A DNA stretch of 64,000 nucleotides from NCBI GenBank assembly GCA_008632985.1, contig QPGO01000032.1, positions 121,330-185,329 on the forward strand. Reading direction: 5' to 3'. A model generated the notes under the pieces. That model saw nothing but the letters and a program-made list of their open reading frames with translations, was not told the DNA's origin and made no database searches. The first letter of the stretch is position 1, and the number at the start of each line of letters is the position of its first letter. Shown here in pieces: positions 10,031 through 62,849 of this stretch. The DNA is from Psammoneis japonica. Its lineage: Eukaryota. The position numbers and the translations under genes are program-made.

Positions 10031-10199
10031 AGCAGCTTGTTACGACAATGCCACTCTAGAGTTCTTGGCCGGCATTGCATTGCTTCGTTGGCACTTCTGA
10101 TGAGATCAGGCGAGTTGTGCGAAAGTGTGAGAAGTGACAGCACCGGCATGAGAAAGGCAGTTCTGGGTTCTTGATTGCTTTTCATTGGCAGGTTGTGCA

Positions 10200-33240: not shown

Positions 33241-35103
33241 CTGCAGTCTTTGGCTTGTCTCTGATCTTCTTGACCATTGCGCCCCGTTTTGCAACGGACT
33301 CTTCCCTTGCACAAACATGCTCAGGTCCTGGTCATCCTTCTCCTCAGCTGTCATGAGGTCTGGCATGATGGTCTCCCACAAGTCATGGCATTGCTTCCCT
33401 CTTGGTCTGTTGAGCCTCCATTGTTGACCAACTCCAAGTTGTGATCCAACATCAAAGTCCCGCCCTTGTTTTGGCTCTTGCAGTTGGCATCATGCCACAC
33501 ATCGCAGTTGTTCTTAGGGGCATGTGCTGGGCAAACACCTCAGCGCACGCTGCACCCATCCTCTTGTCCTTGGCAATGCACTCTTTCCAGCATGTGTCTC
33601 CAACAATCGGGTGCAGCATGCAGTCATGGAGCACTGTCTGCAAAGCCGGGTTTCCCAAGCAATCTTGGAATCTTTTTGCGTATGGCAAGATGCAATTGTT
33701 GCCATTGCAGCATGCACAAAGAGCTTCATTTGTGGCAGGGAAAGCAAGTGATGACACTGTCAGCAACTTCAATGGCTGTTCTTGTTGCACCCTCCATTTG
33801 CACTCACTGTGGAACTTGTCCTGCTGCACCTGGCACACATTTGACCTCTCAATTGTCAGCCACTCCTGACACATCTTTTTTTGTTTCATTGTGAGCCACA
33901 GGTGGTGCAGGTGTGTTTTTGCTCTGGCTTGGGTAAATCCTGCAGCATCCCATCCATCATCTTGGGGCCACAATTTTGTTCACTGTCCCTGCAGAGCATG
34001 CCCGTTTCTTCCATTTCTTTGTCATTGAATGTGTGACACTGAGGAACAATGTTTCCTTGACGCATTCTCTTGCCTTTGCCATGTCCCCTGCTTCACCTTG
34101 GCATGATCGGCCATCCAATTGGTTGAACTTGTCTGCCACTCCACAATGACCATTGTCCTCCGCTGCTGCCGCAGCATTTTTTTCCAGTGTGTGCCAAAGC
34201 ACACTGAAGTGAGGTGATGGATGCAGTTGAGTCTTGCGGACAGTGTGCTTGCAACGGTTGTCTTTCTCCCTTCTGCATGTTTTTTCACTTGCCTGAATGG
34301 GGTCTTTTCCCCACATTTTTTTATTTGGCTGCACATCTGTGTTCCAATTTAAACAGATCCTCCCTCCAATTCAAAACTTTTCATCTTCAATGTCTGAACA
34401 TGTGTTTGTCTTGATGTCAATGTCTCTTTACAGCCAACTCTCCAATGGCTGTTGCCATCATGCCAAGTGACTCCCACTCAAAAATCAACCAAGTCTTCAC
34501 TCAATGATTTGATTCAAAAATCAATCCGACACCTGCACGCCAACAAATGGTTGTGAACAAGCATCCAATTGTTTCATCCTGCTTCTGCTGCCTTCCTTTT
34601 CCAATTGGACTCTCAGCTTGGCATGCCTTTTTGCCACCGTTGCCACCAATGCCGGCAAAATGTGCACCCTGCTCCAGTGCATCTGCCACAACTCAATTGA
34701 GCCAGCCATTCTGCATGCCACTGTTTTTGTTTTCCAAGAACAGCAAATTGCTTGTCAGTTGTCCGTTTCTGCCTCTGAGAAAGGCAAAGTGGCAAATCCC
34801 AGCACTGACTTCAATGCAGACAACAACCCACCCAGCAGTTTCCCACCTGCAGAAGACCCAGAGCTTTTTCCTGCACCTGACAAGGAAGCAGAGGAGGAGG
34901 AGGAGGAGGAGAAACGTGACGACAATTCCTCTCATTGCAAAATGTTTCCTGGCACTCTTTTGCTGCTTCTTTGTCTTCCCCTCTGGACAAGACATCTGAA
35001 GAACCCACCCTCCCCCTGATCTGCTGACTGTCCCACCCACCACTGCCAACTTGGATCCCTTGCATGGGGAGGCACCTGATCCACCAACCTTTTTACTTGT
35101 GGA

Positions 35104-35358
35104 GGAAGCTTTGCTGGAGCTGATCACACTGTGTGACAATTCCGGCACCACTCATCAATTTTGAAGTCAGTTGCTCACCCTGTTGCAACAATTTTGCAAG
35201 AAGTGGAAATTTGATTGTTCCAAGTGTTTTGGAAGCTTTGCTAGAGCTGATCACACTGTGTGACAATTCCGGCACCACTCATCAATTTTGAAGTCAGTTG
35301 CTCACCCTGTTGCAACAATTTTGCAAGAAGTGGAAATTTGATTGTTCCAAGTGTTTTG
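35104..35358 (+). repeat. 127-bp tandem duplication
   Basis: Units start at 35104 and 35231 and are identical except GCTGGAGC versus GCTAGAGC. Confidence 0.9.
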
Positions 35359-36602
35359 GGCGGGACTTGTTGGTCGTGAAGAAACTCTGCAAGAAGGTTT
35401 TCCTGCCCCAGCCCAACACTTGCATCATTGGTGGATGGGAAGTCACTCACTTCCGCATGCTGGACATGTTGAGAGATTTGCTTGCCCACTCAAACTCGAT
35501 GTTTGACAACAAGCACAATCTCAACATGAACAAGTCCATGCAGGCACATTTCAACAAGTTTGTTCCTGTTGACAATCAAGATCTCAGCGAGATCATGTCC
35601 AACAAATGGTGCTCCAACACATGCAATTGCCTCCCAGAGGACTTTGACTGTGAGAAAGACTTGCTCTTGCCAATTGGCTTGTGTGCTGATCAGACAGGGA
35701 CTGATGCCTGTCAAAGGCATCCCCTCAAACTCTGGTTGTTTTGCATTCTTCTTGCCAAGAGGCATGTGTGGAAGTGTGATTGTGCTTGGCATCACCTCAG
35801 GTTCATGCTGAGCATGGACAAGGGTGGGGCAAGTGGCACACTTGATGAGAGTGGCATCATGAACAAAGATGGACAAGCGGCTGAGTCTTCTTCATCAAAC
35901 ATGCAGGCTTGCCACAACATGTTGTCTTTTCTCTTGGAAGATTTGAAGGCGTTGCAGGTGGAGCCTCCCCTCATGATGGCAAACTTGGGTGGTGTTTGCC
36001 AGCTCATGCGCGTCCTCCTTGTGCAAGGGCCAACATCAGGGGACCAGAAGTTACAAGACTTTGTCTGTGGATAGAAAGCAACCAATGGTGGCAGTGCCAG
36101 TTGAGTGCATTGCTTCTGCATGTGTTCTGCCAATGATGTCACAAACACCTCCCACCCAACCAATGAGCTTGGCCTTTCTTGTTCTCCAATCAATGCAAAG
36201 ATTGTGTCCCGTCTTGACAAGCTGGCACTTGGATGGACCAGCTCCACTGCATCATTTGGCAAGGACAGTCCATTGGATGGCTGCCTCAAGAGGCAACAGA
36301 AGCTTGCGGCAGCTCTTCTTTTGCATCTGCACGCAATGCACCTGCTGAGAAACGCCTTTGATGGTGTCAACTTCAGAAGCAATCCATGGGGTGTGTTTTC
36401 AGCAACAGCTGATGATCACCTTCATTCCTGGGAAGCGGGTGGTGTGGAGAACATTGCACAAGTCTTGTGCTTTGGACTGGCCAAGACAGAAAAGGAAAAA
36501 TTTGAGACCAAGCTGAAAACTGTCATTGGAAGCTGCAATTCCACAGCCTTGACACAACTCAAGTTCTGGCTTTGGCAGAATCACTCTCCAGACCCACTCT
36601 GA
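35298..36602 (+). pseudogene. Plavaka-type (CMC-related) transposase, hypermutated
   Basis: LLLPIGLCADQTGTD (~PIxLYxDxT), QRHPLKLWLF, NMQACHNML, GDQKLQDFVCG and RNAFDGVNFRSNPWGVFSATADDHLHSWEAG resemble Plavaka transposase blocks. Internal stop and frame changes. Confidence 0.55.
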
Positions 36603-37321
36603 AAAAATGGGTTTGCTGTTCTGCCTGTGTGCAGCGATGCAATTTCTCAAGCCATGTGAGACAGCCAGTTGGCACTTGCAGAATGGTCATGATCCAGGAC
36701 TTGCCAATGTTGGTTTCTGATGACCAAATTGTGCATGTTTTTTGGATCCTTTTTTCAATGGCAAAGTGGTGGAAGTTGGGAGTGCCTGTGTTTTCATCAA
36801 TCCACTGGAGAAGCAACATGATGTCATTTGTCATGTTGTCCATTCTGTGGTTCAGAACCAAGCTTTGGAGTTTGTTTTGGGGAATCTCCCATTGGCAATT
36901 GTCCTTGTTTGGTGATTCAATGCATCGCCTCTCTTGCCAGGAGGGTCACCAGTGGAGGCATTGGTCACATGGCAGTGCTTCTTGCTGTCCAGTGAAGTGT
37001 GGAAACCACACTGTCACCTGGGTCATCACCAACTTCATCATCATTTGCTTCAGCACAGTGCACTTCTTCAATGAAATCACATCCACTTGGGTTCATGCAG
37101 CAAGGGGTGACTCCAATGTCACCAGCAGCTGTTCTGAAGTGCTTGATGGCACAGTGGAAATAAACAAGTGCAGTGTTGCCTTGAGAATTGCACAGTTCCT
37201 CCAAGTGCTTTGCTCCAATGTAGAAGAAGTGATTGAAGCAAGTCTGGCAGCTTGCCATGACAGCCAGATGAACACAACCACAAATGTCAAGGTCATCACA
37301 GATGTTGTGTGTGTGTGTGTG

Positions 37322-37337
37322 NNNNNNNNNNNNNNNN
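37322..37337. other. Assembly gap (N run) between (TG)n and poly-G
   Basis: Ns in the sequence. Confidence 0.98.
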
Positions 37338-39949
37338 GGGGGGGGGGCTTGGCAAGAGAAAGCAGAGATTTCTTGTAACAGAAGTGGGGGAGACCGCAGT
37401 CTCCTGCACTGTGTCACTGTGTTGTCCTCAGATCTCAGCAAGATAGACTCCCACGAACAACCATCATCAAGGAAAAGCTCTTCTGGGTGGCAATGGGATG
37501 GATCACCCTCAGGCAAAGTTTGTGTGCCGGAACATTCATGAATGAACCTGTCGCAGTTGCAATCAATTGCATGTGTAAAAACACCAACCCTTGCCTGGAG
37601 GTCTCTCATGCCACATTTCTTGATGCAGCAATCACCAGCCTCAGCACGGCTGTCAGTCAACAATTTCAGAGACCAAAGGTTGCCAACCTTGTCTGTCCTG
37701 AATGAGCAAAAAGCTCCGGTGTCATTGTGCGTGAACCAACAGCAGTCCTCTTTGTCTTTGTGTTCATGAGTTCTGTCACCAAGAGGCTCATGTTCTTGAG
37801 CTGAATTGAGTGAAGCTCATTGCCAGCAACTTTGGCACCAAGTTCCTCTCGTGTGGGTTGGCCAAACTGATGGGTGTGCTCCTTGTTGTTGCAGGAAGGT
37901 GGGAGATCAAAATGATTGATGTGCAACTCATCCTGACAGAGCTGCATGCAGTCAAAAGCATCAGCCAACATGGCCTCCACTTGGGGAATAAAATCTTCAT
38001 CATCGTTGTCCATTTCAAACATGTCAAAGCCAAACAAAGGAGAGGGCATTGCTTTGACCTTGTCTCCAACAACCCAATTCTGTCTGCAGCAACCAAAGTC
38101 AACATGACTTTTATGAACCCCCCCCCAGGAAGATGTTTGTTGTGGCTCTTGTCAGTTGTGCCACACTCCAAAACAAAACAAGCTTGTGTTCCAAAATGAA
38201 GTTTGAGCCCAGAGAAATGTTTTTTAAGTGGCTTGTCATCAGAACGGAGCATGGTTTGACCAGCTGCAATCTTGGTGACTTGGAGAGGGACTGAAATCAG
38301 CTCACAAGAGTGCCACATTGGATTGGAGAGTGACCTCAACGAAACAAATGTGTCAAAGCATGGAGGTTCACCACAAGGTGGAAATCCAAAGAGGAGTGAT
38401 GCAGAATTGGCTCTTGGTTGTTTGAGTTGTCATTGACATCACCGTCTTTGTCTGCCCCATTGCAAAATGCATGAAGACAAGGAGTGACTTTGGCAATTTG
38501 TTGAAGGCTGGGGGCAGGGCACTGATGCTCCGGTGGGAAATGAGCATGCCAGTTGTCCATGGGAACAACAAACTGGTCAGTCGTTTGATGAAGGGTGGCT
38601 GGTTGGGAGCTGGAAACATCATCATCTGTGGTCACATCATCTTCATCATTGTCAAGGTCACTGATGAGTTGCGCAAGGGGGGGGGGGGGCTTGGCATTGG
38701 GACAGCCAGAGGGATCATTGAGGCGGTGACAGGATGGCTGTTCAATGTCCATTAGAGTGTGCATTGTGGTGGTTTCCACTTTCTTTTGTAATTTTTTATT
38801 GTGCATTGTCAAAATTGTCAAAAATGAGAATTTAAAAAATGCCGGCAAAAGTGCTCAACAAAATGCAGCTGTTTTGTGCATTTCATCTGATGTCTCATTA
38901 ACTTTTCTTGCACAAGCTTCAATCAAATGCATGCAATGTTTAATTTGACAGGGTTCGAAATCTACATTTTGTGATGCGTGTTTTGGTTTCCTTTTGATTG
39001 CAATCAATTTGAACTTGGTTTTAACTTCATCCTCCTCACACTCACGTGCGTGTGTCTTTGCAGGTGTGCAGCAGTCTGCTGCACATGGCTTCACGCACGC
39101 ACGTGACCCACCTTCATTTTTCTTCATGTTTCCCAGATTTGCACAGCCCGTTGGTCTGCGGCATTTTCAGCACAAATTTTACATGCACATTTTTCTACAC
39201 ACTTCACAACACAACAGCACATCCTCTCCCCAAAATTTGAAAAACGAGAGCATGCACTGTTGTGATTCACGTGGATCCTGCATGTGGTTGCAAATCGGCA
39301 AATCAACAACCGGCCATGGTGGTGAAAGACTTTGCCCCATTGGCCAATGACAGCAGCTCAACACATGGTGAAACCTGCTGTCCTTCTGGTTGGTCAAGAT
39401 GGATTTTGATTCGGGTGCAGCTTGAGTTTCATGATCGCGATTGTGCTGTCACGAGTCTGCCGCATCCAGAATGCTGAGCTGCTGGCATGTTGTTTTGTGC
39501 ACGCACATCACAAACTTGCTTTTCTGCAGCATTGGTGCAGTCATGTGTGTCAGAGTTTTGCACCCAGAATCATCACAAGTTACCACAAATGACACTTTTC
39601 AAACAAGGCATGCACAGAAAGAGGTTTGTTGGTTTTTAATGCATTTGCTGACAGTGCATCTGTCTTCTCCAATTTCTGCATCAATGTCCAGAAATGCTGC
39701 AGACAGTGCTTGTTCCTGCAGCTCTCAGAATCACACACATGAAAAGTTCTTTGCTGTGTGTGACACTCTTCAAAAAAGGCATGCACAAAAAGAGCTTCAT
39801 TTGTTTTTCATGTGTTCAATTGCGTTGTGTCCGTCTTCTCCAATTTCCACTTCCAGATCCAGAAAAACTGCAGAGGCAGAGAGTGGGGAGGCAACCCGTT
39901 GGAGGTTGCCTGAGTTGTCAGGCTCATTTTTAAAGAAAAAAAAACAAAC

Positions 39950-40100
39950 TCTAATTTTAAGTGCTGTCACACCTTTGCCCAGCAACACCGGCGCCGGCCA
40001 ACCCACACTTCCAGTGCACCCTACGGAGGATGCAGCAGAAGATCGTGCAATTAGCCAGATTCGGCGCCCTGGATGGGGACACCCAATGGAAACAGCTGAA
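39950..40100. repeat. Dispersed repeat with an inverted copy at about 55970-56115
   Basis: CCAGCAACACCGGCGCCGGCCAACCCACACTTCCAGTGCACCC versus the reverse complement CCAGCAACACCAGCACCAGCCAACCCACACTTCCGGTGCACCC; differences lie at CpG sites. Confidence 0.8.
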
Positions 40101-40149
40101 GATGGTGCAAGTGCCTCTTTTAGCCAGGCATTTGGCTTCTTTCAAGCTT

Positions 40150-42900
40150 TCTTTGAGTCTTGGGGACCACAGAGATCCAATTTTGAATCCTCGCAGTGGC
40201 AAATGAATGGTGTTCCTCAACTGAATCTAGCAATGCGCCTCTGTCTTTAGCCAAACATTCCTGGCGTTTGTTGCAAATCGCCATCAATTCAGCTTCAACC
40301 TTTCTTCGTTGTGATGATTTACGAGACTCCACATCATGCAAGTGAGCCAGCTGGTTGTGCTCCTCCCATGGCTCCCACCAGCTTCTCCATGTGCAGGATC
40401 CCATCTGGACAGTCCAATCTGGTGGCTGTTTGTTTTCCTCCTGATGTTGACGCAAGATGCCTGAGTCGCAAAGATGACCAGTTTGTAGAAGGTTCCACAT
40501 GAACGAATGTCTGCCGTTGAAGATCTGTTGCCATCCAACACCCAACTGAGCTTTCCACAACTCCTTGCATCTGCAGTCCACGTTGTTGAGATGCGTGATT
40601 TCCTCGTGAAACCAAGCCTGCAGCATGTCCAATGGAAAGTCACAAAGAACAGGCATTGTGTCCACCTTGTCACAGTGTCTTTGCAGGCCTTGTAAGAACT
40701 TCCTCCTCCACTGTTCATTGTTGGGACATCGCAGAATGTGGTCCCTGTCTTCCATCGGATGATCTCATGTAATGCACTGGTGAGGGTGAACCGGATTGTA
40801 TCTGTGTGCAATTTTGTTGGCAGGTGACAAGTCGTGGACCAATTTTACCGTGTTGATGTGTTTCTGCGAATGACGCTTCACTGGGACCGCGTGGGCATTC
40901 CAATCAACTTGATCAGGCTCATTTTTAAAGGCTTCCCAAGTCTCTCTGCTGTTTCTGGTCCATGCTCCAAACATTTCATTGATGAACCATTCACAGCACA
41001 AGAGGCAGGTGCAAGGCAAACTTGGTCATTGCCGCACAATGTCTTGCACCACACACCGGCATCAATGTTGCTCCGGAATCAGCAGCGCTGGATGCGCATC
41101 GATGCACCGGCAAGTGTGTGTTTCAGCTCATGTCAGTTCATCTGCCTTGTGCTCTCACAATGTGCTCCACACTTTTTGGCAATGAACAAGGTTGACATCA
41201 GAGCAACAGCACTTCTGCTGCAAACTTGCCAGCTCCAGAATCAGCGGCATCAGACACACTGGCAAGTCCATGTTGCCAATTCACCAGCAAGAGTGTGTTG
41301 CGGTTCATGTCAGTCCATCTGCCTTGTGCTCTCACAATGTGCTCCACACTTTTTGGCAATGAATGAGGTGGACATCAGAGCAACAGCACTTCTGCTGCAA
41401 ACTTGCCTGCTCCAGAATCAGTGGCATTGGATGCACTGGCAAGCCCATGTTGCCATTCCTGTGGGTTGTGTTGGATCATCTGTGTTGCACTCTCACAACA
41501 TGGAAAAACTGGACATGCTTTTCAAGCACAATTGCTGTGTGGTTGGCCAAGCATTCAACTCTTGCACTCTGACTCTTGGAATGCTTGAATGCAAGAGGGA
41601 ACAATTCATTGAAGTGTTGACCTGTTGGATCAAAGAGGTGTGCACCTGTGACCTCTTGGAGGCTGCGGGTCTCAATGGATCACTTGAGAACCACACAAGA
41701 TGTGTGAGATGGGCTTGCCCACTTTTCTTCAAACTGCAGAATGTCACAAGAGCAGCATTCAAGCAGTGTCACCACATCATTTGGAGCCAGTGCAACAAGG
41801 AGATGAAGGTGGTTGAGCAACTCTTTTGTCAATTGCTGAATGCACAATGAAAGCAGACAGGTCAAATTGCCACCAAGGAGATGCTGGCGGCACTGCTTTG
41901 GCACACGCAAGCAAAAATTAATGTGTTGAAGGAGCTCAGACCAATCCTGACTTGTTCTCAGAGCACATTGGTTTTGTTGTCCCAAGAGACCCTGACATCC
42001 GGTGCTGTGGCAATGCTGGCACAGATTTTGGAGGCAGTGGATGCTGCCCAACATTGTGCTTCTGGCTTGACATTGGATGCGGTGTCAAGAATGCTGGACT
42101 GGGAACCCAGGGACACATCCACAGCATCATCAACCAATTGGAGTTCCCAGTGGTGACTCTCCTGTTTGCAGGGATCATTGCCTGGATGCGCGTGCTGACA
42201 TGGGAACAAGCTGACACAATGTTCCTGAATGGCATCCCTCCCCAGCCTGTTGTCCCAAATGAATGTGATGACTCTGCTTCTTCCTTGTCATGAAGCAACA
42301 AAGGATTGTCCACATTGCCATCTGCACAAGCCATGATCGCACATTTTTGTGAACAGTTGCGTGCCTCAGGAATGAGGCACAATTCTTGGACCTTGCTGGG
42401 ATGCTCAATCTGTTGGCTGACAATGCCATCTTGTGTCAACCTGACTGTGCTTTGCATCTTTTTGTCCACTTTGCTCAGCTGTGTCAGAGTTGGCCTGTGA
42501 TGAGGGATTGGGACTGTTTCCTCCCAAGTCCCAAGCTGCTACAGGGCCTCTGTTGTGCACTGTTGACAGCATCAACAGTGGTGCTGGCCGCAATCCCCAA
42601 GAATTTAGGATGCTTTGTTTGCGCTGAATCCATTGCTTTTGGCTCACCCATGACATGAACTGGCACAAGGATGACCCAGGTGTGACAATGGAAAATCTTG
42701 GCACCATTTTATGATGGCAATCCATGCATTGCATCTCATGTCAGGGAGTGCTTTGTTCTGCAAGCAAATCAAATTGGATGCCATCAAGAAGTGCCTTCTC
42801 ACAGCAGTGTCTTTTTGCACCCTCTTCAGCAAGGCTTGCCGGGACATTCACAGGAGCAACCCATTGAAAAAGGAGTTTTGTCCCTTGCTCCAGAATGTCT
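40150..42900 (-). mobile_element. Degenerate LINE (RNase H-bearing type), 3' portion
   Basis: VDWNAH...VKLVHDLSP...RY...C...EDRDHILRCP (C-terminal Zn-knuckle region) and QLGVGWQQIFNGRHSFMW. Upstream, ACADG and SHSFGTTGWG resemble RNase H motifs. Includes a ~180-bp tandem duplication at about 41105-41460. Confidence 0.6.
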
Positions 42901-43831
42901 TCAAGAGCATTGAGGAATGTGAAGAGGAGCCTGCATGCAAAGAGCCTGCAACCCTCGAGATGGTGGTTGAGCAGATTTGTCAAGGGGAATTCACGGCAGA
43001 GAAAGATCCAGATGGGCTCGTTGCCATCCAAGGAGATTGGAGCCAAGCAGCAACAACTGGTGGATTGTGGTGTGGTGAACATGCTCAGTCCAAGAATGAG
43101 AAAAACCCACAGCATCCACAATGAAATTTCAAGGATGACACCAAGGCTTTCACTCTGCACGATGTTTGCATCCCAACAAAGGACAGAAAGTGCTGCAAAG
43201 GAGCGGACATTGCTGCTGACACCCCTCTCTCAGTGGCATTGAAGAGTTCAAGCACAAGGCATTGTCTCAGATCAGTTGTGTTTGAGCAGTGCACTGCATT
43301 GTTTGCTGCTTTGCACGCCTGTCAGGTCACAACAACTGTGAGACCCCCTTGTCAACACACCGCAGTGAGAAGGGGAGTGTGAACTTGCTGACCACAAGTG
43401 ACTGACACTGCACTGTGCACTGCATTCATGCCACACCATGGCAGTTCAGAGGAAAGGAAATGGCTTGTGCAGCATCGATGCGTTGAGCCACCAGGCACCT
43501 GTCAGCTCTCATCTCAAGCAATGGCAGACCAATCAAAAGAACACCGTCATTGACAAGAGAGCCCTTTGGATGCAAAACAATCACAGTTTTCCTTTGCAGA
43601 AGAACAAAATGCTCCCGACCATCTTCTTGTTCATTGCAGAGGGAACAGCAAAGCCAACTGGCATGTTCACTCATCATGCAGCCTTTCTTTTGTGATGATT
43701 GAAGGAACAAAAAATGCAGAACAAAAACATTTTGCGCTCCAAGCGTGTTGCAACACCTTGTCATTTCATCCTCTCACTTCCCACAGCAGAGGCAAAAGGG
43801 CACCTTGTAGGGCATGAACAATCATTGCATG

Positions 43832-44360
43832 TCAATGTGATGCAGGCATGACATCAGCGCGGACATCGGGGCAGCGATATCCTGCTGCTACAAAGGCGAT
43901 AGTTTACGCAACTCTGATTGTAGCATCATGCGAGAATAAAAGAAAATATGAAATCATTGAATTACTAAAATATGAACTTCGTCTCTCTGAGGGGGGGCGC
44001 GAGGCGTTGTTCCATCATTTACTGCTGCTAAACCACTGTGTTTGGAACTTTTGCACGCGTTATCTCACCCCAAAAGAATTTGAAACTAAAGATTCAATGT
44101 GATGCAGGTATGACATCAGCGCGGACATCGGGGCAGCGATATCGTGCTGCTACAAAGGCGATAGTTTACGCAACTCTGATTGTAGCACCATGCGAGAATA
44201 AAAGAAAATATGAAATCATTGAATTACTAAAATATGAACTTCGTCTCTCTGAGGGGGGGGGGCGCGAGGCGTTGTTCCATCATTTACTGCTGCTAAACCA
44301 CTGTGTTTGGAACTTTTGCACGCGTTATCTCACCCCAAAAGAATTTGAAACTAAAGATTG
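43832..44360 (+). repeat. About 262-bp tandem duplication abutting the stop codon of paralogue C
   Basis: TCAATGTGATGCAGG(C/T)ATGACATCAGCG...GAAACTAAAGATT starts at about 43832 and 44094. Confidence 0.9.
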
Positions 44361-47300
44361 AAGGTGAGATCCGACCGTAGAGTCTGCAGGGCAAGCGTTT
44401 CATTGAGACTGGAAGCCCTGACAAATTGGAAAGTTATAGGTTGCGGTGCACCTATGGTAGCAAGGACGATGCTGTAGTAGCGTGCAGGTTCAGAAGGATC
44501 CTGACATTCAAGGTTGGACGCCTCAGCTTGTGCAATAAAGCTTGAAAAGTCATAATTGTCCGTATATTCCAGACATTGGAACTTCCTTAAAGGTAAATCG
44601 GCCGTGCAGTTCCGGTCGAATGGAGCAACAATGGGGGTGGGGTTTGTGACGTTCTCGCAACCATACGTTGCGCCAGAAAGCTCTTGAACAAATCCAGATA
44701 GTGGCTGGCAAGTCAGAGGAGTGGAGCCGTCGTTGCCCGTAAAGACGGGGTTACCAAACTCGTACCACGCTGAACAAGAGTACGGACGGCAGATGCCATC
44801 CGAGAAGCCACAAAATTCTAAAGCGCCACAGTCATTGTCTACGCTGCAATCCGGGCCCGGGGTGGGAGGAGGGGTGGGGGTATTGGAAAGTTCCGCATCC
44901 ATAAGGCGGGGTGGGTAATTTGGGTTCCACACAAACTCCTCGACACGGGTGGTGAGACCGTTAATGGTACTAGGGTTTGCGACACGGGTTTCGTACGTAT
45001 AGAATGGATTCCCATCAGAACACGTAAGGTCCGAATTTGTCGTGTCTTCCACAAATTGAGAGAAGTCTGTATTAGACGCATATTCCAGACACTCAAACTT
45101 CTGGAATTTATCCGGAAAGTCGGCTTCGCAGATGCGATTGAACTCAACTCTAAATTCCGGGTCCAAGAGCCTACAGCCCCAGTCGACTCCAACGGTTGAT
45201 GGATCAGGCCCAGCAAATGGCGAACACGAGAGCGGCACCGTGCCATCATTTCCGGTAAAACTGGTGGGCCCGAACTCATACCATGATTCGCAGGAAAAGT
45301 CGCGGCATCGGTTGTCGGTGCCACAGAATGCCAAACCCATACGCCCACAGTCTGAGTTCATGGTGCAGTTCCCGGCACCGGTTGGAAATGGCGTGGGAGG
45401 TGGTGGCATAGTACCTGTAGGAGACGGTGCAAGGGTAGGTGCAGGGGTCATAGGAGCTGTTGGCATAGTACCTGTAGGAGACGGTGCAGGGGTAGGTGCA
45501 GGGGTCATAGGAGCTGTTGGCAAATCAGGAGACGGTGCAGGGGTCGGAACTGGGCCCGGTGTCGGGAGGGGACGATCAGGAATACAGAAATCAAGGTCAT
45601 CGTTATCTTCGCACACGCTTCCATCTTCTGCATCTGCTTTAACAGTCACGGTCTTGTTGATACACTGGGGTGTGCAACTGTCGATCGTGCCTGGTTCAAT
45701 GATGCCGCGTGACTCGCTCGCTGGAATAGTCAAGCCGTCAGGTGGCAACAGATCCCTCACTTCTCCGTTGCAGGTGCGCTCAATCTCAGTGATTTCCAAG
45801 GACACATCACCCGGGTTAGCTATGACGTAAGTGTAATTCACATCAAAAAGACATTGGGAATCGATAACGCCGTCCTGGCTCCTGCATCCTTTAATCTGCA
45901 GGGCGCCGAACGTATCGTCGAGACTAATGGGCGCGTTCGCATTGGTACCAGATGCATCAAAGATGTTTTCTTGATTGACAGCACTAAGACCCGACTCAAC
46001 ATCGATGATGGTGCAGTTGAGCTCCGTTGGGAGACAAGTGCCATTCACGGCGCCAATGGTGATGGTTTGATCGATTTTGACGGTGCAGTTGCAGTACACC
46101 CTCTCCGTATCTACACATAAGATCAATGCTGAACCACCTTGAGGAATGGTATTCTCTTCGAAATCGGTACACAAGGCATTTGGTTGATCGTTATCGTCCT
46201 CGGTGCACAGAATATCAATCCAGGCAATAGTCAAGCGGTCAATGCACTCGCCACCGGTACAGGTCTCTGGGGGAGGTCTGATATCTTCGCAGGGTTCACC
46301 AGTGTCTGCGAGGATGCAGTCCAACGATACCTGAAGAGATTTGTTCAAAAAATCAACGACAGGTTAGAAGAAAATCCACAAGTTAGCATTGGGATGAATC
46401 GAGAATGTCGAGGGATCCAACTTACGTCCACATCACAAGGCAATAATTCAATGCAAAATTCGTCAGATTCACTGTCTTCACAAACAACGCCTTCTTCGTC
46501 CTCAGCCCTGACAACAACTTCGGTCGTGTAGCAATCCTCAATGCAGCGGTCCAGCGTTTGATTTTCCATTGGATTTACGCTTTCTCCCGGCTGAAGAGTT
46601 GTAGGATCGACAATGTCAATCAAGTCGTCGGTTTGGCCGTTGCGGGTTCGCAAAAGTTCAAGGATAGTAAAAGTCGTATCACCTGTATTCGTGACTGTGT
46701 AAGTGTATTTTAGATCCAAGAAGCAATCCTTCTCGTTCCCGTCGTCGTCCTCGCAGCTCTTTAGCGTAATACTACCAAACTTGTCTTGGAGTCTCAAATC
46801 CACTATTCCTGAAGTATCGAAAACCACCTCTTGGCAGAATGTATTGCCGTCGGGGCTTGAGATAACACACGTCATTGTTCCAGGTAGAGTGGAACCTTCG
46901 TTAGCTTCAAGAGTGAAGAAGCGATCAGATCCACTGCTGCTGACGGCATCGTCTTGAAAGGAAAAACCATCTCCTTCACAGGTAACACTCACAAGATCAG
47001 CGCTACTGCAGAAGTCTTCGTTGTCAGTAGTATCCATGCAAGTGAAGGTACCATCGTCCTCCTGACTGTTGTCACTTGTACCACATTCGCAATACAGGTA
47101 CTCGAATGTGAGCTTTGTGAGTGGTTCGCTAGTTGCGGCGCAATTGCCATCAATCGGTGGAATATTTTCACATTCGCTACCGACTGGTACGTCGTCGGCT
47201 CCGCTGGCAACTTCGCACTCAAGTATTACCTGATTGTTCAATAACACGGAAACGGCATATTAGCTTGTCTGCTGTTATTTGGTGAGAATCTTTTTTGCGC

Positions 47301-47717: not shown

Positions 47718-50700
47718 CTTTATTGTCTTCTTGGTCACTCACACTCACCATGTTAGTTTTGACAAGAAAGTGAGAAAAACGAACAAGAGTGAAAAGTGAA
47801 AAGTGGCGATGCGTATCGCTGGTTTTACGGGTGAACGGTTACAATATTGACATTTAAGACACTTAAGCGAATAATATAATATATATTTAAATTTACTTAT
47901 GAATAAAATAATTGTTTTGGCGAAATGTGTGTGAATGTCATGCCGGCTTGAAATTTTTCAAATTTATGTATCGACCCATTTTCACAAATCTACAATGATA
48001 AAGGATATCAATACTGTTAACAGCCAAATATTTGAATTGCACATACCCGAAAGCATGGAACGGCCGGCGTGGGATCGCACACGGCAAGTACAGTACAGTA
48101 GGGCCCTACCGTAGGCAGTAGAATGCCGGCACATCTGGTTGTGTGTGCTGTCTGCATGTCAGAGCCTCTCCGAGAAAGAACAAAGGGTCCTCCAGAGGCG
48201 CTGCTGCCATTGGCAATTACATTTGGGAGCAATGGTGGGATCTGTGGGATTCCCAGCACAATGACACAGCACATGGTCATGACTCTGAAACTTCTTTCAA
48301 CAACACCAATGCTGTCATTTGCTGCTGCACAGGAAAACACGTGTTGCCCTGTTTCAAGGCAATTGGCCAGTTTTGCCATGTGAAAAAGTGCTGGGTTTTG
48401 CAGCTGGCTGCTGTGCCCCGAGGCACCCCACGTTCATTTTTGTTCTCTGTTGTGATCAAACTGCATTGTTTTTCTTGGGGTGGATGGCCAGTCAGCATGT
48501 CCATTGGTGGCAAACTCAGTTTCCATCTGCACAAACAGATGCAAGCGCAAAGGGCGGGGGAAAGTGCTGCAAAATGAACCACCTGAGTGTGGCCTTTTGG
48601 ATGACAAGCTCTCAACATGAGGTGGGCAAGGTGCACTCAGACCTGGTCTTCCCAATGACTTGTCTCTCAGATTTGTCACATTCTTTGTTTGCTGTGCTTT
48701 TTCATGGTGTCACATTGGGACAACTGCTCCCAGCACCTGTCAAAGGCACACCACATCAGAGACCCGCAGAAGGGGCCATGAGTCACAGGTCATCAAACCC
48801 CACCATCTCATGTTGTGTGCACATCTGCAAACATTTGTTTGCCCCCCTCATAATTGAAATCAACATTCACTTGTTGTTGGGGATGCAACACATTTGTTCA
48901 TTTTCACCAATCGGATTGTTCCATGTCGCACTTGTTGCTCCCTGATGAGTGTGATCTAATGCGAACTCATTGACTTGAGTGTCAACACCCATTTTGTTCC
49001 AACTGAAAGATGCTTTTTTTTCAGCAATGTTTTGACCTTTTTCAGCTTCCCCTCCAAAATTTGTGCCATTTGTCAGACCAATCGTGTGCATGGCATTTCT
49101 CTCCCTTCTGCTTGTGATCTGTGGATCCAATCCCCTGTGCTTTTGGTGAATCAGTGCAGAATTGTGGAAGTGCTGTGACAAGCAGTCCACAGGATTCCAC
49201 ATGCACTGTTTGTGCCCCTGTTGCCCATGGCAGTTTGCCTCTTCCACAATTGCAATCATGCCCTGCCTCAAAATCATGCCCAAGCAAAAGCAATGTCTCT
49301 CTTCTTGCCCTGATTTATTTGGGGACAATGCCAAATGCGAAACTGGCTTCACCGCTTGCTTTGTCACGTCTCCGGACCATGACGGTTTGTTGCTTGATGT
49401 TTTGTTGCCCCCAGCTGTGGCAACAAGCCCCTCTGATGGCATCTTTGATGCCAGTGACTCTCCAGCTGCCTTTGCAAATTTGACCAAGGAGGATTGGAAG
49501 GAAGCTTTTGATCAAGAAGACAGCAAATCTGCGTTGGGTGAGATGGCATCAGTGTCCTCTGGGAAGGATGACAAGACAGCCGGCAGCATTCCAGACATGA
49601 ATGTCAGCTCAGACAACGAATCCAATGGCAGTGACTCCACCAGCTTGGGCCATTCTCATGCCAGGATTCTGTCTGCTTTTGGAGACCTTGATGGTCATGC
49701 AAGTGACCTTTCTTTTTTTGACAAAAACAACAGTGATGAAGACAATTCTTTTGATGGAAGCAATGGTTCTGTGCTGCATGACCAAGCCAAAGCATGCACC
49801 AATGGTGTCGGCAGCGGCCACATGACCAAGTCACAGCTCTGACCGAGGCTGCGAAAGCACTCGTTGACATCCAAAACGATGCTGGTGCATCCAGCAAAAA
49901 GAGAAAGATTGTCAGGAAACTAAAGCATTTCACAGCAGCAAAGCCAAAGGACACAGACAGAAATGCAGGACCAAGGAAGCACAAGACACTGAGGAAGAGC
50001 AAAGGGTGGTCACCAAAGGCCAACAAGTTCTTTGTTGACATGGTCATGGAGATCAAAGAAGATGTTGCAAGTGGACACCTCAGGTGGTGGGAAGAGCTCT
50101 AAAGAGCCATTGCAACCAAGCAAAATCAACGGGTGGCAGAAGAAGCACAAGAAGGCTCCAATGATGAAGACAAACACCAGGTCAACTGTGCGGAAACATG
50201 CAAACTGGAGTTGGTGGCAGTTCAGTTGAGATTGACTCAGCAGCAATGACTCACACATGCACTTGTTGACACAATCAATTGCAGCAGCAACATGCAACAA
50301 ACAGATGGGCCACTGGGACAATGGAAGTGATTGTTTGCACATGCAAGTCAACCAATTGAGTTTGACAGCAAATGTTGAAAACCAATCCAAACACTGCATT
50401 TGGTTGTCACCTGGTCAGCGACAACAAGCTGAGTGAAATCCTGCAAAGAAACCTTGTTTGGCATTGCAACTGATTGAGTTGCAGCTTTCTCATTAGGATT
50501 GACCACAGTTTGTTGATGTGATCAGACACTGATTAGTTTGCATGGACATTTGTTTGTTTGTCAATCACACCCATTTGTGGCAAACAGGTCTGATTCATGT
50601 TAAATGGCAATGATTCATCACAAACAAATCATTTGTGTTCCAACACTCACACATGCCATCTGCAACATTGTCCTTTGGTCTGACCACAAGACAATTCATG

Positions 50701-53700
50701 AAAACAGAGCTCTGATGCACTGTGATGCCATTGCACACAAAAGATCCAGGCATTGCAAGAGTGAAAAAAGAGAGAGCCATTTCCATGGGTGGAGGACACC
50801 AGCCAACAAAAGCCCTCCAGACAAGAAGTGACAAGAGTGTGAGGTCATGGGGCAGGCATGCAAAGAAGAGGGTGCAAAAACAAAGCACAAAAGAAGCTGG
50901 ACACACCAGCTGCCTTTCCGTGATCCACTCATCAGAAGAAATGCAGCAGCAGCACTGGAGAGGAGGATCAAGCTGTCAGAGATTAAGAATTGGCATTGAT
51001 GGAACAATTTGTTTTTGTTGCAAAACTTGATGCGCTCTGCCTCCTGCTGTCATTTTTGTGCCTGTCGCTCATGAGAAACAACTGCACTGTCAGCACACAC
51101 ACACACTCCTCAGCAATGCAAACAATGGTGTCAGCTGAGAAAACAAAAATGGAGAAGGGGTGCTGTCACAAAAGTCAGCAAATGTGCTGCTTCTTGTTGC
51201 TGCTGCATCCAATTGGATGGTGAGGTGGTCAACAGAAAACAAGAAATGCAAGAAGAACATGATCATCAAATCCAGCACTTTGGCTTCTTGTTGTTGTCAT
51301 TTGACAATGCTCTCACCTTTGCCAACATGAAGCCATCAACATGCCTGAGCAGCTCTGCAAAGACTGGCAACTTGCAACTTTGGCAGTCTGCTTGATTGTT
51401 TTGCTTTTCCCTTCACAAACATTCACTCCTCTCATGAATTCTCAAGGATCAACAAGAGACCCAATGCCCCATCTCTTGCACAGCAAAACCATTGTTGTGG
51501 AGCTCCTGCTTTTTTGGGAGCCTCTTCCACCAGACATTCTTTCCAACCATGGCTGGCAAGAAGCAGTGTCCAAAGCACGTGTGTCTTCATGTTCTCTGAC
51601 CCTTGCAGTGTCATGCATGGGGGTGTGGCATTTTCACTGTGTTGGCTTGTCTCCTCTGCATTGGCTTTGTTGCCAATTTGCAATTTTCTGCAACCCATGT
51701 GAAGATGAAGTCAATGCAATGAACAAGAGTGGTGTGGCTGTTTGCTGCAACCACAACAATGAAGTGTGCTCACTGCTGAAGAAATGTTTTCTTTCATTTC
51801 TCTGGCAACATGGTCAAGCTTGGTCTGTTCTCTGATTGCCTGCATGACCAGCGGCCATTGCACTCAAGTGTGGCACAGCTCATTTGTGCCTGCCACACCC
51901 AGACATCCATCATGGCATTTTGGCATTCCTTCATTGATGAACTTGAGCCTCAAAGCAGGTCAGTTTGATGCATTTTTCTAACATGGCATTGTCTCTGTTG
52001 CTTGTCCTTGTCTTGCAACAATGCTTTCACTTGCTGTTCCTGCTGCAGCCCACACTCAAATGCAAAGAGTTGTCAGTGTCATCATTGTTCTGTGTGCTGT
52101 TGCTCCAAGGTGGAGGATGATGCCCTCAAAAAGAACTGGGTTTGTGCAGTCCGCACCGCGGATGAGCAGGAGGGCTTCTTCAAGCTTGCCACCAGCTGCA
52201 AAGGGGAGTGGGTGCTCCAAAAGGTTGCTGAGTCACAGTCAACTCCCCACAGCATGGGTGCACCATCACTGCAGCCTTGACACAAGCATTTGTGGCATGA
52301 CCAGGAGATGGAGCTCATTGATGTCACAGCACCCTCTGTGAGAACTTCTGTGTGTGGCAAAACTTTCTCTCTCTGTTGTTGCATCATGGAAATCATTTGT
52401 GCCAGTGTTGGCTTTTCAATCCACTTCAACAGACATGCAATCATGTCATGTCAACCATGCACTCCATTGTGCCTGTCACAATGCAAAGATTTTGAATGCA
52501 CTGACTGGGGGTGGGGGGGGGGGGGGGCAGCACCCACCACCTCAACAGCTGCAGCACTCCATTTTCCAGAACAGCGCCAACAGTGCTTTCTGGATCCAGG
52601 AGCTCATCTGGCAGTTTGGACACAGTGCTTCTCTGCTTGTGCTCCCCTCAAGAGACAGAGGAGGAGCTGAGATGCACTTCATCTGTTTCTTTGCACTGTG
52701 TTAGATGGGGTCAGCAGCCGCCAGCAGCTGTGCCAGAATTTTGAAAACAAAACAATTTGCACGAATTGCAATGATGGCTGCAGTGGTCTCAACTGTGCAA
52801 AGACCAAGTTTGTGGTCAAGAACAAAGTGCTCCCCAGCTTTCCTCTGGCTGTTCACAATGAATTTGAGGAAAAAGATGTTCCCAAATTTGTCCTTTGGTG
52901 CCAAGCAGAGAGCACCTGTTTTAGTGTGCATGAGCCACACACATTTGTTGTGGCTCACATGTCATGCTGCCCTGCCACTCAGCAGCTCTTCACTTGGACA
53001 GCACCAAGCCTGTTTTCTTGTGCACCTTGGTGCTGAGGCTGTCATGATGCAGTGCTGTGCCATGCATTTGGACCCTCCTGATGTCATTGCTGTGGGGAGC
53101 CACCACATGACATTGCCAAAGCACCCCAGCTCCAACTCATCATGGCAGTGCTGCACTGTGCTGCAAGTGTTGGCAAGCATCACCTTGATCTGTGAGCACA
53201 CAGTCAGGTCATTCTCCTTTAGAAACAACAAATCAAAGCTGAGGTCAGCTCTTCCTTCTCATGGTCTGCTTCTCCTGGCACCCAAGACTGCACCTTGGGC
53301 ACCAAAGTTGATTTGCAGATTGCAGAACTTGCAGAACTTCTTTTCAACCTCACCACCATCGCCATGTGCCAAGATGTCATCCCACAGCTCATTCAATCAG
53401 GGCCATGTTCAAGAACAAAATGGTTGATGGTTGACACAATGCAAAAGGAAAAATGAGACTGCTCCACCATGCCTTTGACTGCAAGCTGGAGGCTGCAAGC
53501 CCAGCAAATTGCAACCACTCTTCCAAAAGGTGCATGACCTCATCTCAGGAAATGCAGTCAGAACAACTCAACAACCCCAGTCAAATCCCATCTTCCTGCA
53601 CATCCCTTGTCACCCAAAGGATCCGCCATCAAGTGAACTGCAGCAGCTGTGGAAAGGCACAAGGGCCAACCCCTCCCTGCTCACAACCCCTCTCAAAACT

Positions 53701-53856
53701 TCAAAATCTTGCTCGACAACCCATCGGCCTTGACCACATGATTGTCTGTTGCAGCCACTTGCATGACCTTGGAAATCTTCTTTCCTGCTGCAAACTTTGC
53801 ACCTCTCATGGCCCCCCAGTTTCATCCTGCTGGGTTGCAAATGGGGTGGCCCCTGA

Positions 53857-53894
53857 GAGAGAGAGAGAGAGAGAGGCAGAGAGAGACAGAGAGA
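53857..53894 (+). repeat. (GA)n microsatellite
   Basis: GAGAGAGAGAGAGAGAGAGGCAGAGAGAGACAGAGAGA. Confidence 0.9.
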
Positions 53895-56800
53895 TGGCAA
53901 TTGAGTTCAAATCATCTCAATCAACTTGTCCATCCTCCTTCAGATTTTTCAATGCAACAACTTCAACCATGTGTGAACAACAGCAACCAACAGCTGATGA
54001 AGCCACCATGAAAGTCTTGTTCTCCTGACTTCAGCCAACAACATTGTTGTGCCTGCCATTGGCTGAAACAGTTGGACAAATGTGTTGCAAATGTGAGCAC
54101 ACAATCACAGTGGACAACAAAGGGATGAGGCATGGCAGCCTCAAAAGAGCAGAGCTTCTGGTGCAGATCATCAATGAGGCAGCAATCTGCCACTGCCAGA
54201 GACCTTGTTGTTGTCAATGCTCTTTTCCTTTCATGTCATGTTGACAAAACAAAGTGCTTTTTGGTGGCCCTGGATCTGCACAATGTTTTTGAACCTGGAC
54301 TTGTTGGTGTTGCAACACAACTGCTTGAAGGAGAGCAGAGCTCTTGCTCAACAAGGCTTGAGTGCTTCCACGCCACATGCCTTTCTTCTTGTTGAGCAGT
54401 TGGACAAAGTCCTTTGTGCTGTCAAAGTTTTAATCAAGGGGCTTCTTTGCCAACTTTTTAGACTTTTTTCCCTTTCTGGTGTTGAACAAAGTCAACAGAT
54501 TGTTGAATGTGACCACAAACTGTCTCAATTTTCTGCAGCTGCTAAATGCTGCAGCCCTGCATGCAGCACACACATTTCAAAGACTCTGCAATGGAAACAA
54601 CAATGATGCTCTGGGCTTGTGCACAAAAAAGTCAACCTTGGATGTGAAGTTCACTTCTTTTTTCACAAAGCTTTCTGAGTTGTGCCAAGCATCTCAGGCA
54701 GCGTGGATGTTCTTGCCAAGTCCAGAAAGATTGGAGAACAACTCTGGTGTGCAAGCTTCTGTGGTGGCTGCTGTCAGGAAGGCACTTGCAGAGCCAACTT
54801 TGGCTCTTGATGCACAGACAAAGCAGCTGTGGCAGCCCAGCAACATTGCCAGCATGTTGGCTGCAGCTGCAACCTCTCCTTCCTAAAAAATGAAAGGCAC
54901 AGCACTGTTCCAGTCATGTGGTGATGGATGTGCCACCAGGCCAGAAAATCAGGGGATGGCAGCTGTTTTTTTGTGCACAAAACCCTCTGACAAAAATCTG
55001 TTGACAAACATCTCAGTTTTGTCATCTCTGGCAGAAGAGCTGCAAATGGGTCAGATTGAAAGAAACGGAAAGACAAATTGATGAAAGCAAGAGAAAGTTT
55101 TCTCTTGCAAAAGAGCTGCTTCCCAATGTCAGCTGCCCCCACTGACAGCCCCTGCATGTGTTTCCACATGCTCTCTCAAGAGCTGATGTTGCCCTTTTCA
55201 GATGGCACCCAGCTGGGTCCCCCGACACCCTTTTGGCCACTTCTGTCATTGGCACGCCCCTCTTTCAGCATGATGCACAACAATTTTTAGTGGAAAATGA
55301 CTGGGGTTGATGCCTCATGGCTTGCATGCTTGTTGTCTTGTCAGGTGATTTTTTGCAGATTCAATGCATTTTGTTCTACACAGGATCTGGTGCAGATTCG
55401 TGCACTTCAGAAATGCCCACCAACAACCACAATGTCTTTGATGCAAACATCTTCCATCCACACCTGCCAGCCCACAACAATTTCTTTTTCTCCCACTGGC
55501 TGCTCATGTCCTTCACCTCATGTCACAGTGAAAGTTCTGCCCCCCACTGTGGCACTTGCGCATGTTCATTTGGACAAACCATCAGCATCACTTGACAACC
55601 ACCCATTTGCTGCACAGATTGGCACTTCTGTACAAGATTCAGCATCAACTCCATGTGAGAACAATGTTTCTTTCAACGTCCTTCTTGTCATGTCATCAAG
55701 ACTCCCCATTTCACACATGCAAGTCCTGAACACCCCCTCTTCTCCCCACTGGCACCCACCAACCACCAACCTTGCTTCTCTGTGAGCAGTGAATAGATTG
55801 TTTTTGTTCTCTGGCACGCACAAATGTGAAACCCAGTCAGTCTTTGTTGAACACATGACTCATCCTTGGAAGCAAGGTTTTTCTTTCAGAGTTTGCACTG
55901 ACTTTGTGTCCTCTTCTTCAGCTGGGGTGCTTTGCATCCTCTCCAAAGGAAAGCTTCCATGCAATTGCTTCTCAGCCAGTTGTCTCCATTGGGCACCTTT
56001 GTCCAGAGGCTGATCACATGAACTTCTGCTGCACCCCCCCCCTTGCAGGGTGCACCGGAAGTGTGGGTTGGCTGGTGCTGGTGTTGCTGGAGAAAGGTGT
56101 GATGGCACTTTAAAGTGGTTTTGTTCTTGCAAAAGAGATGCACACTTGCCACAAAGTTTTCCCTTGTCCCCTTGTCATTGTCACCTGGGGCGCTGCTGTC
56201 CTTGCCATCATCATCATCATCAATGCCACCTTTGCCACCCACCTCCTTGTGCTGGGAAAGGAGGCAGTGACAGCAGTTGCCACATTGCAGCACCTTTCAT
56301 CACACCATGATGTGTGGCAACCACCACTTTGGGATGTGTTGTTGGGCTTGCTTGTCACCCAAATCTTCTTCAGAGTTTTCATCAGCTGCTTTTGTTGCCA
56401 TCAAATGTGGCACCAATGCTGTCATTGGAGTCATTGTCCAGCTTGTCATCAGAGTCACTCTTGAGCAGTTTTGCAAAAGCACCCAAAAATGCCTGGCCTT
56501 TTGTGACATGTCATCTGAGCCATCATCACAATTGCTGTTGACATCACCAAATTTGTCTTTGTCTGCACTGCCATCTGAGTCACAATCAGAGCTGTTGTTT
56601 GGCCCTGATCCTCTGCTGCATCATCAGCTGCACATGGGGTTGCTCCATGAAGCCACTGTGGTTGGGGTTGACACCTGAGTGCAAGTGCAGAAACCTGCAT
56701 GGACAACACAGAAAAGCCTGAGTTGTTGCAAGGAGGAACCTGTGGTGTCCCTTCCTCTGATGCTGTTCATTGTGCTGCATCATGTCCTTGGACACCACAC

Positions 56801-56949
56801 AGCTTTGCATCATGCACATTTTTGTTTGGCAATGAGCTTGACAACCACTGAAGAAAAAGCAAGGGCCCAAGATTTAACCTCAAGTCACCAGGATGTCATT
56901 GTCAAAACCACCTGAAGTAGCCAGGATGTCCACTTCTCAACTTGTCAAA

Positions 56950-62450: not shown

Positions 62451-62849
62451 TCCTGAACGGTCTTGTGACAGAGAGCTGCAATGGCACTGCTCTTGAGGTT
62501 TGGAGGAGTGTGTCCATCCAGAAGATCTTTGGGAGCAGGTGTCTTGTCTGAACATGGCTGATTCAGGTGTCAATGGGCGTTGTGGGTGAGCAATGTTGTG
62601 GTGTGAACTCAACCTGTGTTGACTTGATCTTGGCTTTAAATCAATGGCAGTTGTGTTCTTGTTGACCATGGTTGTGCATTAAAAAATTAAATTCCTTTGC
62701 ACAGTGCTGGCATGTGTTCTGCAGTGGTTGTGATGATCACAAATTGAGAAAGAAAAATGGCTGTGACAAACATGATGATTTCAACAAAGAAACGCCACCA
62801 AATCACACAGCAGGCATTGAAATGTGGCCATGCTGAGGAAGACAAACAG

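Follow-up and report, generated by a model that had tools for sequence, protein, structure and literature searches.

Targeted point hypermutation of repeats has so far been essentially a fungal phenomenon, represented by repeat-induced point mutation (RIP), and CpG decay is its passive counterpart elsewhere. RIP in ascomycete fungi, including its leakage into flanks, is covered by PMC3105345, PMC9453070, and PMC3318451, and the last of these also deals with TCG-targeted hypermutation in Microbotryum and other basidiomycetes. Here, we analyzed a 64,000-nucleotide stretch of the genome assembly of Psammoneis japonica (GCA_008632985.1; contig QPGO01000032.1, positions 121,330 to 185,329; referred to here as the window), in which a duplicated piece of host DNA flanking a block of decayed repeats was stripped of TA and CG dinucleotides in one copy and remained intact in the other.

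The changes at this locus share several properties with RIP. They constitute a transition hypermutation that is limited to repeat-rich blocks, is tied to a dinucleotide context, destroys genes that lie within the blocks, and spills into adjoining single-copy DNA; the leakage into unique DNA consists of 410 bp of host flank that were mutated one-sidedly. However, RIP converts CpA to TpA, with an enrichment of TA and a fall in G+C content, whereas here TA is destroyed (A:T to G:C) and the G+C content stays at 0.48. RIP is also triggered by duplications (several hundred base pairs; at least 80% identity), whereas approximately 800 bp with approximately 99.6% identity and a triplicated unit escaped here, and the host is a diatom instead of a fungus. 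A RID/Masc1-type DNA-methyltransferase-like gene is a further hallmark of RIP genomes. The decay of methylated CpG in silenced transposons, as in vertebrates, likewise changes CG to TG/CA on either strand and is confined to repeats or to a domain, but it accounts for no more than the slower half of the signature (survival, 0.09 for TA and 0.19 for CG), and we know of no CpG-decay system that removes TpA.

A preference for A-to-G changes at adenine after T is also known from adenosine-to-inosine (A-to-I) RNA hyperediting of the ADAR type and from the polymerase-eta arm of somatic hypermutation. A-to-I hyperediting acts on an RNA strand and marks retroelement copies, whereas at this locus both strands were affected equally, and a flank, a pseudogene, and an intron, which are not transposons, were changed in place, thus excluding an RNA intermediate. 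Polymerase-eta mutagenesis targets WA sites (i.e., TA and AA), whereas AA was unaffected here in what is a composition-based, indirect comparison. Clusters of the APOBEC type consist of strand-coordinated C-to-T changes in a TC or CC context; here, there were no such runs, and the cytosine changes were tied to CG. Hypermutation of TA to CA/TG was unreported in the full-text literature searched, which excluded subscription journals and yielded only fungal RIP and CpG decay, and the TA half of the signature looks unprecedented. A process that erases TpA through A:T-to-G:C transitions within domains of a major group of algae would represent a new type of genome-defense or epigenetic footprint and would indicate a base modification or DNA-editing enzyme yet to be discovered.

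One-sided loss of TA and CG in a duplicated flank

Within the window, the clearest case for a signature that arose in situ after insertion and extended into host DNA is provided by the duplicated flank. Self-BLAST paired 26100-26634 with 43580-44102 (88% identity) and 26356-29688 with 44094-47387 (89%), and a purine/pyrimidine-coded BLAST search added 25658-25793, which corresponds to 43441-43576. The flank (43441-43850) duplicates 25658-25793 and 26100-26375 of the unmutated copy (referred to here as copy B), in which these two pieces are separated by a 306-bp segment (25794-26099) that is missing from the flank. A preliminary description of this DNA had given the duplicate as 43420 onward versus 25650-26380; the duplication is real, but the homology begins at 43441. 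In purine/pyrimidine-coded comparisons with the depleted block, we detected no homology for the sequence to the left of 43441 (local score, 127; null maximum, 143.5) or for the 306-bp segment of copy B (score, 23; null maximum, 26). The end of the flank overlaps a tandem duplication, the two copies of which (43832-44102 and 44094-44367 by self-BLAST) are 97% identical and differ by just three substitutions, at 43847 (CA versus TA), 43882 (CC versus CG), and 43926. The domain edge lies within the initial 20 to 50 bp of the first tandem copy.

Compared with copy B, the flank copy lost 8 of 9 TA and 9 of 15 CG sites; 14 of the changes yielded CA/TG, and one change ran the opposite way (Table 1). 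Changes to CA/TG affected 6/9 TA sites near the block (43440-43860) versus 11/139 far from it (43860-47400) (Fisher p = 6e-5) and 8/15 CG sites near versus 18/198 far (Fisher p = 6e-5). The asymmetry between the copies was 14:1 in the near part (p = 0.001) and a nonsignificant 29:37 in the far part. Alignment-free counts gave 10 TA, 15 CG, 38 CA, and 32 TG in 412 bp of copy B, versus 1 TA, 6 CG, 56 CA, and 34 TG in the 410 bp of the flank copy on the side of the block labeled as transposable elements (TEs). The TA changes in the flank were divided between CA (four) and TG (three) in the gapped alignment.

Table 1. Fate of copy B dinucleotides along the aligned flank
Interval	TA in copy B	TA kept	TA to CA/TG	TA reverse	CG in copy B	CG kept	CG to CA/TG	CG reverse
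Near, 43440-43860	9	1	6	0	15	6	8	1
Far, 43860-47400	139	117	11	15	198	164	18	22
Bin 43440-43600		0/4				2/7		
Bin 43600-43700		0/1				1/3		
Bin 43700-43800		0/2				2/3		
Bin 43800-43860		1/2				1/2		
Bin 43860-43960		7/7				6/7		
Bin 43960-44102		5/5				4/5		

All of the TA pairs in the preliminary description were recovered, i.e., GTATCG>GCATCG (25686/43473), CCTATC>CCTGTC (25714/43501), CTAATC>CCAATC (25747/43530), CGTATT>CGTGTT (26271/43747), GGTATG>GGCATG (26371/43847), and, under an equally good gap placement, GAATAA>GAACAA. Its CG pairs (ATCGAA>ATCAAA, AGCGAA>AGCAAA, CTCGTC>CTCATC, and GGCGC>GGCAC) are also present, and we found five further pairs: GTAGA>CTGGC, ACGG>TCAG, ACGGG>ACAAG, CCCGG>TTTGG, and TTCGC>TTTGC. 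When TA/CG retention was followed along the alignment of the two copies, the losses were one-sided rather than symmetric between the copies. At the sole site for which an outgroup is present, the second tandem copy retains GGTATG (at 44109), as does copy B, and the two together polarize the change at 43847. The 14 remaining changes were polarized by parsimony alone, the derived copy having the composition of the depleted block and copy B having a normal composition. The one-sided changes and the TA retained at the outgroup site support the earlier view that the loss post-dates the duplication.

Positions outside TA and CG differed between the copies at similar rates in both parts of the alignment (near, 28/356 [7.9%]; far, 160/2,694 [5.9%]). 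Transversions amounted to 3.7% near versus 3.4% far, and transitions amounted to 4.2% versus 2.6% (p = 0.08). This equal background divergence indicates that the near and far parts have the same copy age and similar constraint and that only TA and CG carry the excess; thus, neither relaxed selection nor differing age accounts for the loss in the flank. The mutagenesis is positional, as previously proposed, with one sequence being intact as copy B and stripped of TA/CG in the flank.

The loss of TA was near full strength for approximately 410 bp and ended within approximately 20 bp, with the last change at 43847 and a retained run from 43864. The TA effect is a step at approximately 43850 and does not fade over about 0.4 kb, as had been described, although TA and CG sites are essentially retained beyond approximately 43860 (Table 1), in agreement with that description. 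For CG, there is a hint of a gradient at most, the sites being too few to judge. A spread from the TE edge, which had also been proposed, is compatible with the data; these reveal a domain extending over nonrepeat DNA but no direction of spread. We also considered gene conversion that restored 43860-44360 after mutation and found it unsupported, the divergence of this segment from copy B being ordinary (8/185 nonsite positions); an old conversion may have occurred over the segment.

Depleted domains across the window

In 500-bp windows, four blocks (1-6000, approximately 8300-12400, 30500-43850, and 48200-64000) had observed/expected (o/e) ratios of approximately 0.0 to 0.3 for TA and approximately 1.5 to 2.1 for CA/TG. 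Domain edges were sharp within 100 to 200 bp at six places. The o/e ratios of TA, CG, and CA/TG were 0.06, 0.19, and 1.82, respectively, in depleted DNA (32,086 bp) and 0.63, 0.94, and 1.12 in normal DNA (23,903 bp), and survival in the domains relative to normal DNA was 0.09 for TA and 0.19 for CG. The summed frequency of TA, CG, CA, and TG was 0.242 in depleted DNA versus 0.237 in normal DNA, the G+C content was 0.481 versus 0.485, and the counts of CA and TG in depleted DNA were approximately equal (strand balance). The losses of TA and CG equal the gains of CA/TG on both strands (mass balance). The o/e ratios of AA/TT (1.21 in depleted versus 1.10 in normal DNA) and AG/CT (1.01 versus 1.03) were also determined. 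Arithmetic on the flank (1/9 TA and 6/15 CG kept), block 1-6000, and the domain survival values indicated that TA decays approximately 2 to 4 times faster than CG. In the flank, the per-lineage acceleration was approximately 25-fold for TA and approximately 9-fold for CG, as calculated from few sites.

Eight repeat pairs within the depleted blocks, all of which were found by purine/pyrimidine-coded BLAST, had 72 to 92% nucleotide identity; the seven listed with at least 100 columns were 88 to 97% identical in the coded alphabet. The repeats of the domain adjoining the flank pair with 49827-50721 and 63618-64000 (79 to 92% nucleotide identity; 88 to 96% purine/pyrimidine-coded identity for the recovered ones). 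Transitions outnumbered transversions in seven of the eight pairs. At 46 of 362 aligned pyrimidine-purine sites, CA in one copy was opposed to TG in the other, indicating that an ancestral TA or CG decayed independently and in place in each copy. We detected no strand-coordinated runs, and the autocorrelation of the CA/TG order in the blocks was approximately 0 at lags of 1 to 20, which argues for site-wise events.

Survival in different contexts was computed against normal DNA. For TA, it depended on the 5' neighbor (A, 0.02; G, 0.06; C, 0.09; T, 0.21). Among tetranucleotides in blocks 8600-12200, 30600-43400, and 48300-64000, it ranged from 0/136 for ATAT through 0.24 for CTAA/TTAG to 0.49 for TTAA. 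The effects of the two flanking bases on TA multiply, which fits two independent strand-specific events. CG survival was lowest for TCGA (0.06) and highest for GCGC (0.38), and the outcome was biased to CA when the 3' base was A. Such TA-free DNA leaves TGA as the sole stop codon, and the depleted blocks contained 181 spurious open reading frames (ORFs) of at least 90 amino acids, a source of long false predictions in annotation.

Spared DNA and contents of the blocks

Exon 1 of a conserved LOTUS and P-loop ATPase gene lies on an unmutated island (9550-10060) with normal CG density, flanked by an intron (8500-9500) and upstream DNA (10100-12300) that are both depleted. Given its normal CG density, the exemption of this island looks positional and not selective. 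Within the duplication, 45294-46094 (approximately 800 bp; approximately 99.6% identical to its paralog) retains all TA and CG, indicating that duplication alone is not the trigger. The triplicated 22652-24562 unit is likewise unmutated.

We searched 133 ORFs (at least 90 amino acids) from the two large blocks against Pfam and found a subthreshold RVT_2 relic (E value, 5.7e-5); stop read-through added an SH3_retrovirus-like integrase match (E value, 8.8e-4), the two being colinear as in Copia. The Pfam scan of these and 46 other depleted-block ORFs returned RVT_2, Aminotran_3, and OST-HTH, along with four further matches at chance level. At least one Copia-type relic appears to be present, as weakly documented by these matches. 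The earlier label of a TE block has this relic in its favor but is otherwise weakly backed; other blocks hold a host-type pseudogene and the intron of a live gene. The pseudogene is aminotransferase-like; over 445 codons, it contains no frameshift and a single in-frame TGA, at a position where its homolog has Arg. It encodes 3 Tyr versus 8 to 14 expected, and His (23) and Cys (22) are raised.

Possible explanations of the signature

We observed directly the direction and specificity of the changes, their dependence on position, their mass balance, the sharp edges, and the sparing of genes and of the exon island. We consider it probable that a heterochromatin-like domain renders both self-complementary pyrimidine-purine steps hypermutable and that the flank was overrun in place. 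The flank would be unremarkable intergenic sequence belonging to a gene unit that was segmentally duplicated; in this copy alone, it lies inside a sharply bounded domain, which would also span the neighboring 13 kb of decayed repeats. At each TA or CG, one base pair would undergo a transition to give CA or TG, site by site and with either strand equally likely, and each repeat copy would mutate independently. The domain would correspond to a heritable chromatin or DNA modification state (heterochromatin) that was seeded on the repeats and may have overrun the flank until it reached the neighboring gene. Such a process would bear on the loss of genes adjoining repeats, as exemplified by the pseudogenes in the window.

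Diatom repeats carry CG methylation, and the CG half of the signature would therefore most simply be 5-methylcytosine deamination. The TA half is the faster of the two and would require a further activity linked to this domain. Within this explanation, our tentative candidate, to which we assign somewhat less than an even chance, is a mutagenic symmetric modification of TpA, for example, a thymine that is oxidized and pairs wrongly with G, or an adenine that is modified or deaminated. A dedicated DNA deaminase or error-prone repair synthesis might take its place, the latter fitting poorly because AA is untouched. Beside CpG methylation over silenced repeats, diatoms, or this lineage at the least, might place another heritable mark on palindromic TpA or direct a mutator to it. 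The footprint of TA to CA/TG, faster than CpG decay, would then reveal a hitherto unknown DNA modification or an adenine- or thymine-directed genome-defense enzyme, and its domains would be able to engulf and destroy neighboring host sequence and genes; the balance is close to level on this wider proposal and tips slightly to the negative side.

Several other origins of the signature can be envisaged. Older nanopore base-callers make systematic miscalls at methylated motifs, and the assembly is scaffolded, with a run of 16 N (37322-37337) inside a depleted block; still, it is hardly credible that modified repeat bases were miscalled in long reads and carried into the consensus. A contig from sequencing run X1 (2,365 bp; mean k-mer depth, 62; short-read-like) reproduces 41500-43834 with three differing letters, one of which is at 43438 (CG in the run versus CA in the window). 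This contig is beyond the reach of noisy long reads, which argues against a base-calling artifact at modified bases. Contigs from two further runs, X2 and X3, overlap the stretch barely or not at all. Miscalling also conflicts with the loss of both TA and CG at a conserved sum with CA/TG, with the independent choice of CA or TG in each repeat copy, and with the matching amino acid shifts in the pseudogene. We regard as very improbable a genome-wide neighbor-dependent bias combined with relaxed selection, whereby the flank became junk in this copy. Depleted blocks are indeed gene-poor and contain pseudogenes, and unmutated islands coincide with genes. However, divergence outside TA and CG is 7.9% near versus 5.9% far, with copy B not visibly more constrained, and the far part, intergenic DNA included, shows slow and symmetric TA and CG changes. 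Normal CG density in the exon-1 island and edges in the form of 100- to 200-bp steps are also contrary to this bias.

Deamination of 5-methylcytosine might trigger error-prone patch repair (polymerase-eta-like; A to G after W) that mutates nearby TA, also over a patch length beyond the domain. Such collateral damage would account for the common edge of both changes and would allow TA to outrun CG, since CG sites persist after repair while mutations arise in the patches; moreover, TA is the hotter WA context in vertebrate somatic hypermutation. We nevertheless judge it improbable. The WA signature lacks its AA part, as seen from the AA/TT ratios given above and the unchanged AG/CT, the losses are almost all transitions whereas polymerase eta makes transversions too, and we know of nothing like a TA o/e ratio of 0.06 in heavily CG-methylated vertebrate DNA. 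In a RIP-like genome-defense mutator, a dedicated DNA deaminase or a pair of them would be directed to repeats or heterochromatin and would act on the adenine of TpA and the cytosine of CpG, possibly at a particular life stage (such as sex), with leakage over a few hundred base pairs into flanks. The extreme depletion, the sharp edges, and the lead of TA over CG, unlike slow spontaneous decay, speak for such a mutator, as does the intermediate state of the pseudogene, whose ORF is almost intact (1 stop, 0 frameshifts). The preference of tRNA and RNA adenosine deaminases for T before adenine is a further resemblance. Nonetheless, the near-identical duplicates at 45294-46094 are unmutated, so duplication is not sensed, and strand-coordinated runs are absent. 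To our knowledge, there is no natural double-stranded-DNA adenine deaminase in genome defense, and none was found in the full-text literature searched. On these grounds, we consider the deaminase mutator unlikely, while conceding it a real minority share of the probability.

Some points weigh against the heterochromatin-like domain that we favor. Its chromatin or modification state is deduced from sequence alone, and we know of no spontaneous decay of a modified base that predicts a faster loss of TA than of CG. The surviving sites showed no nucleosome-scale periodicity but only patchiness, below approximately 600 bp. The flank evidence comes from one flank with 24 informative sites in one 64-kb window, with an outgroup for a single one of its 15 changed sites. 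At the left edge of the 30.5- to 43.4-kb block (30285-30500 versus 25494-25700), no second control was obtained, the homology stopping at approximately 30340, short of the depleted zone. A 34-nucleotide exact pattern from the flank, with which an outgroup or allele was sought, had 0 matches in public metagenome contigs. Run X1 may share its sample with the assembly and hence may not be independent support. For the model diatom Phaeodactylum, PMC12695648 reports 5-methylcytosine but no 6-methyladenine, which weighs against reading the TA half as adenine methylation.

Genes and other features of the window

The coordinates of the features are compiled in Table 2. By its predicted proteins, the window can be assigned to the nuclear genome of a pennate diatom: an ORF resembling CapA (12745-14289; minus strand) had its top named match in Amphora coffeiformis (73% identity) and matched many other diatoms, and Pfam identified a kinesin gene and a COG8/Dor1 gene. 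A survey of CapA loci for the signature covered 80 loci (590 kb), which were mostly bacterial, and flagged 0 windows, being uninformative on other diatoms. The hypermutated flank sits downstream of the DUF7467 stop codon at 44351, and this gene has paralogs at 26618-29526 and 22486-24422.

Table 2. Coordinates of the flank, the depleted domains, and the genes and relics discussed in the text
Feature	Coordinates	Strand	Remarks
Hypermutated host flank	43441..43850	.	Intergenic, 3' side of DUF7467 gene, inside TA/CG-depleted domain; gapped alignment to copy B
Unmutated paralogous copy (copy B)	25658..26375	.	TA and CG densities typical for unmutated parts of the window
Tandem duplication, 262-266 bp unit	43832..44359	.	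Copies 43832-44093 and 44094-44359
Depleted domain adjoining flank	30500..43440	.	TA o/e 0.00-0.22, CG o/e 0.07-0.56 (500-bp windows); decayed repeats
Second large depleted domain	48200..64000	.	Shares repeat copies with 30500-43440; putative Copia-type relic
Less advanced depleted domain	1..6000	.	TA o/e 0.15, CG o/e 0.64
Depleted domain split by unmutated island 9550-10060 (~500 bp)	8500..12400	.	Exon 1 on island
DUF7467-domain gene(s) of duplicated unit	44351..47259	-	Pfam DUF7467, E values 1.3e-5 and 3.9e-10
Putative degenerate Ty1/Copia-type relic	RVT_2, 59095-59697; integrase SH3-like, ~60693-60863	-	Both below Pfam curated cutoffs
Aminotransferase-like pseudogene	1064-2398	-	47% identity to P0121 over 454 amino acids (tblastn); in block 1-6000
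Conserved LOTUS + P-loop ATPase gene	Main exon, 6789-8012 (part listed to 8161); exon 1, ~9740-10015	-	80% identity to P0129, 616 amino acids

Some minor observations concern the same DNA. Between the two DUF7467 gene copies at 45294-46094 and approximately 27550-28350, only 3 of 721 non-TA/CG dinucleotides differ inside a duplication that is otherwise approximately 89% identical; this stretch is probably a recent gene-conversion tract. Inside the depleted block next to the flank, an X1 contig (depth, 78) omits 132 bp at 42578-42711, which is a length variant or a collapsed repeat. Short TA-rich stretches at 6500-6800 and 47800-47900 (TA o/e ratio, 1.3; 15 TA in 100 bp) adjoin domain edges on the unmutated side. 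In the DUF7467 unit, G+C-rich (0.67) internal tandem repeats of approximately 120 bp occupy 24440-24960 within an ORF. Poly-G runs of variable length are located at 26513-26535, approximately 43991, and approximately 44252.

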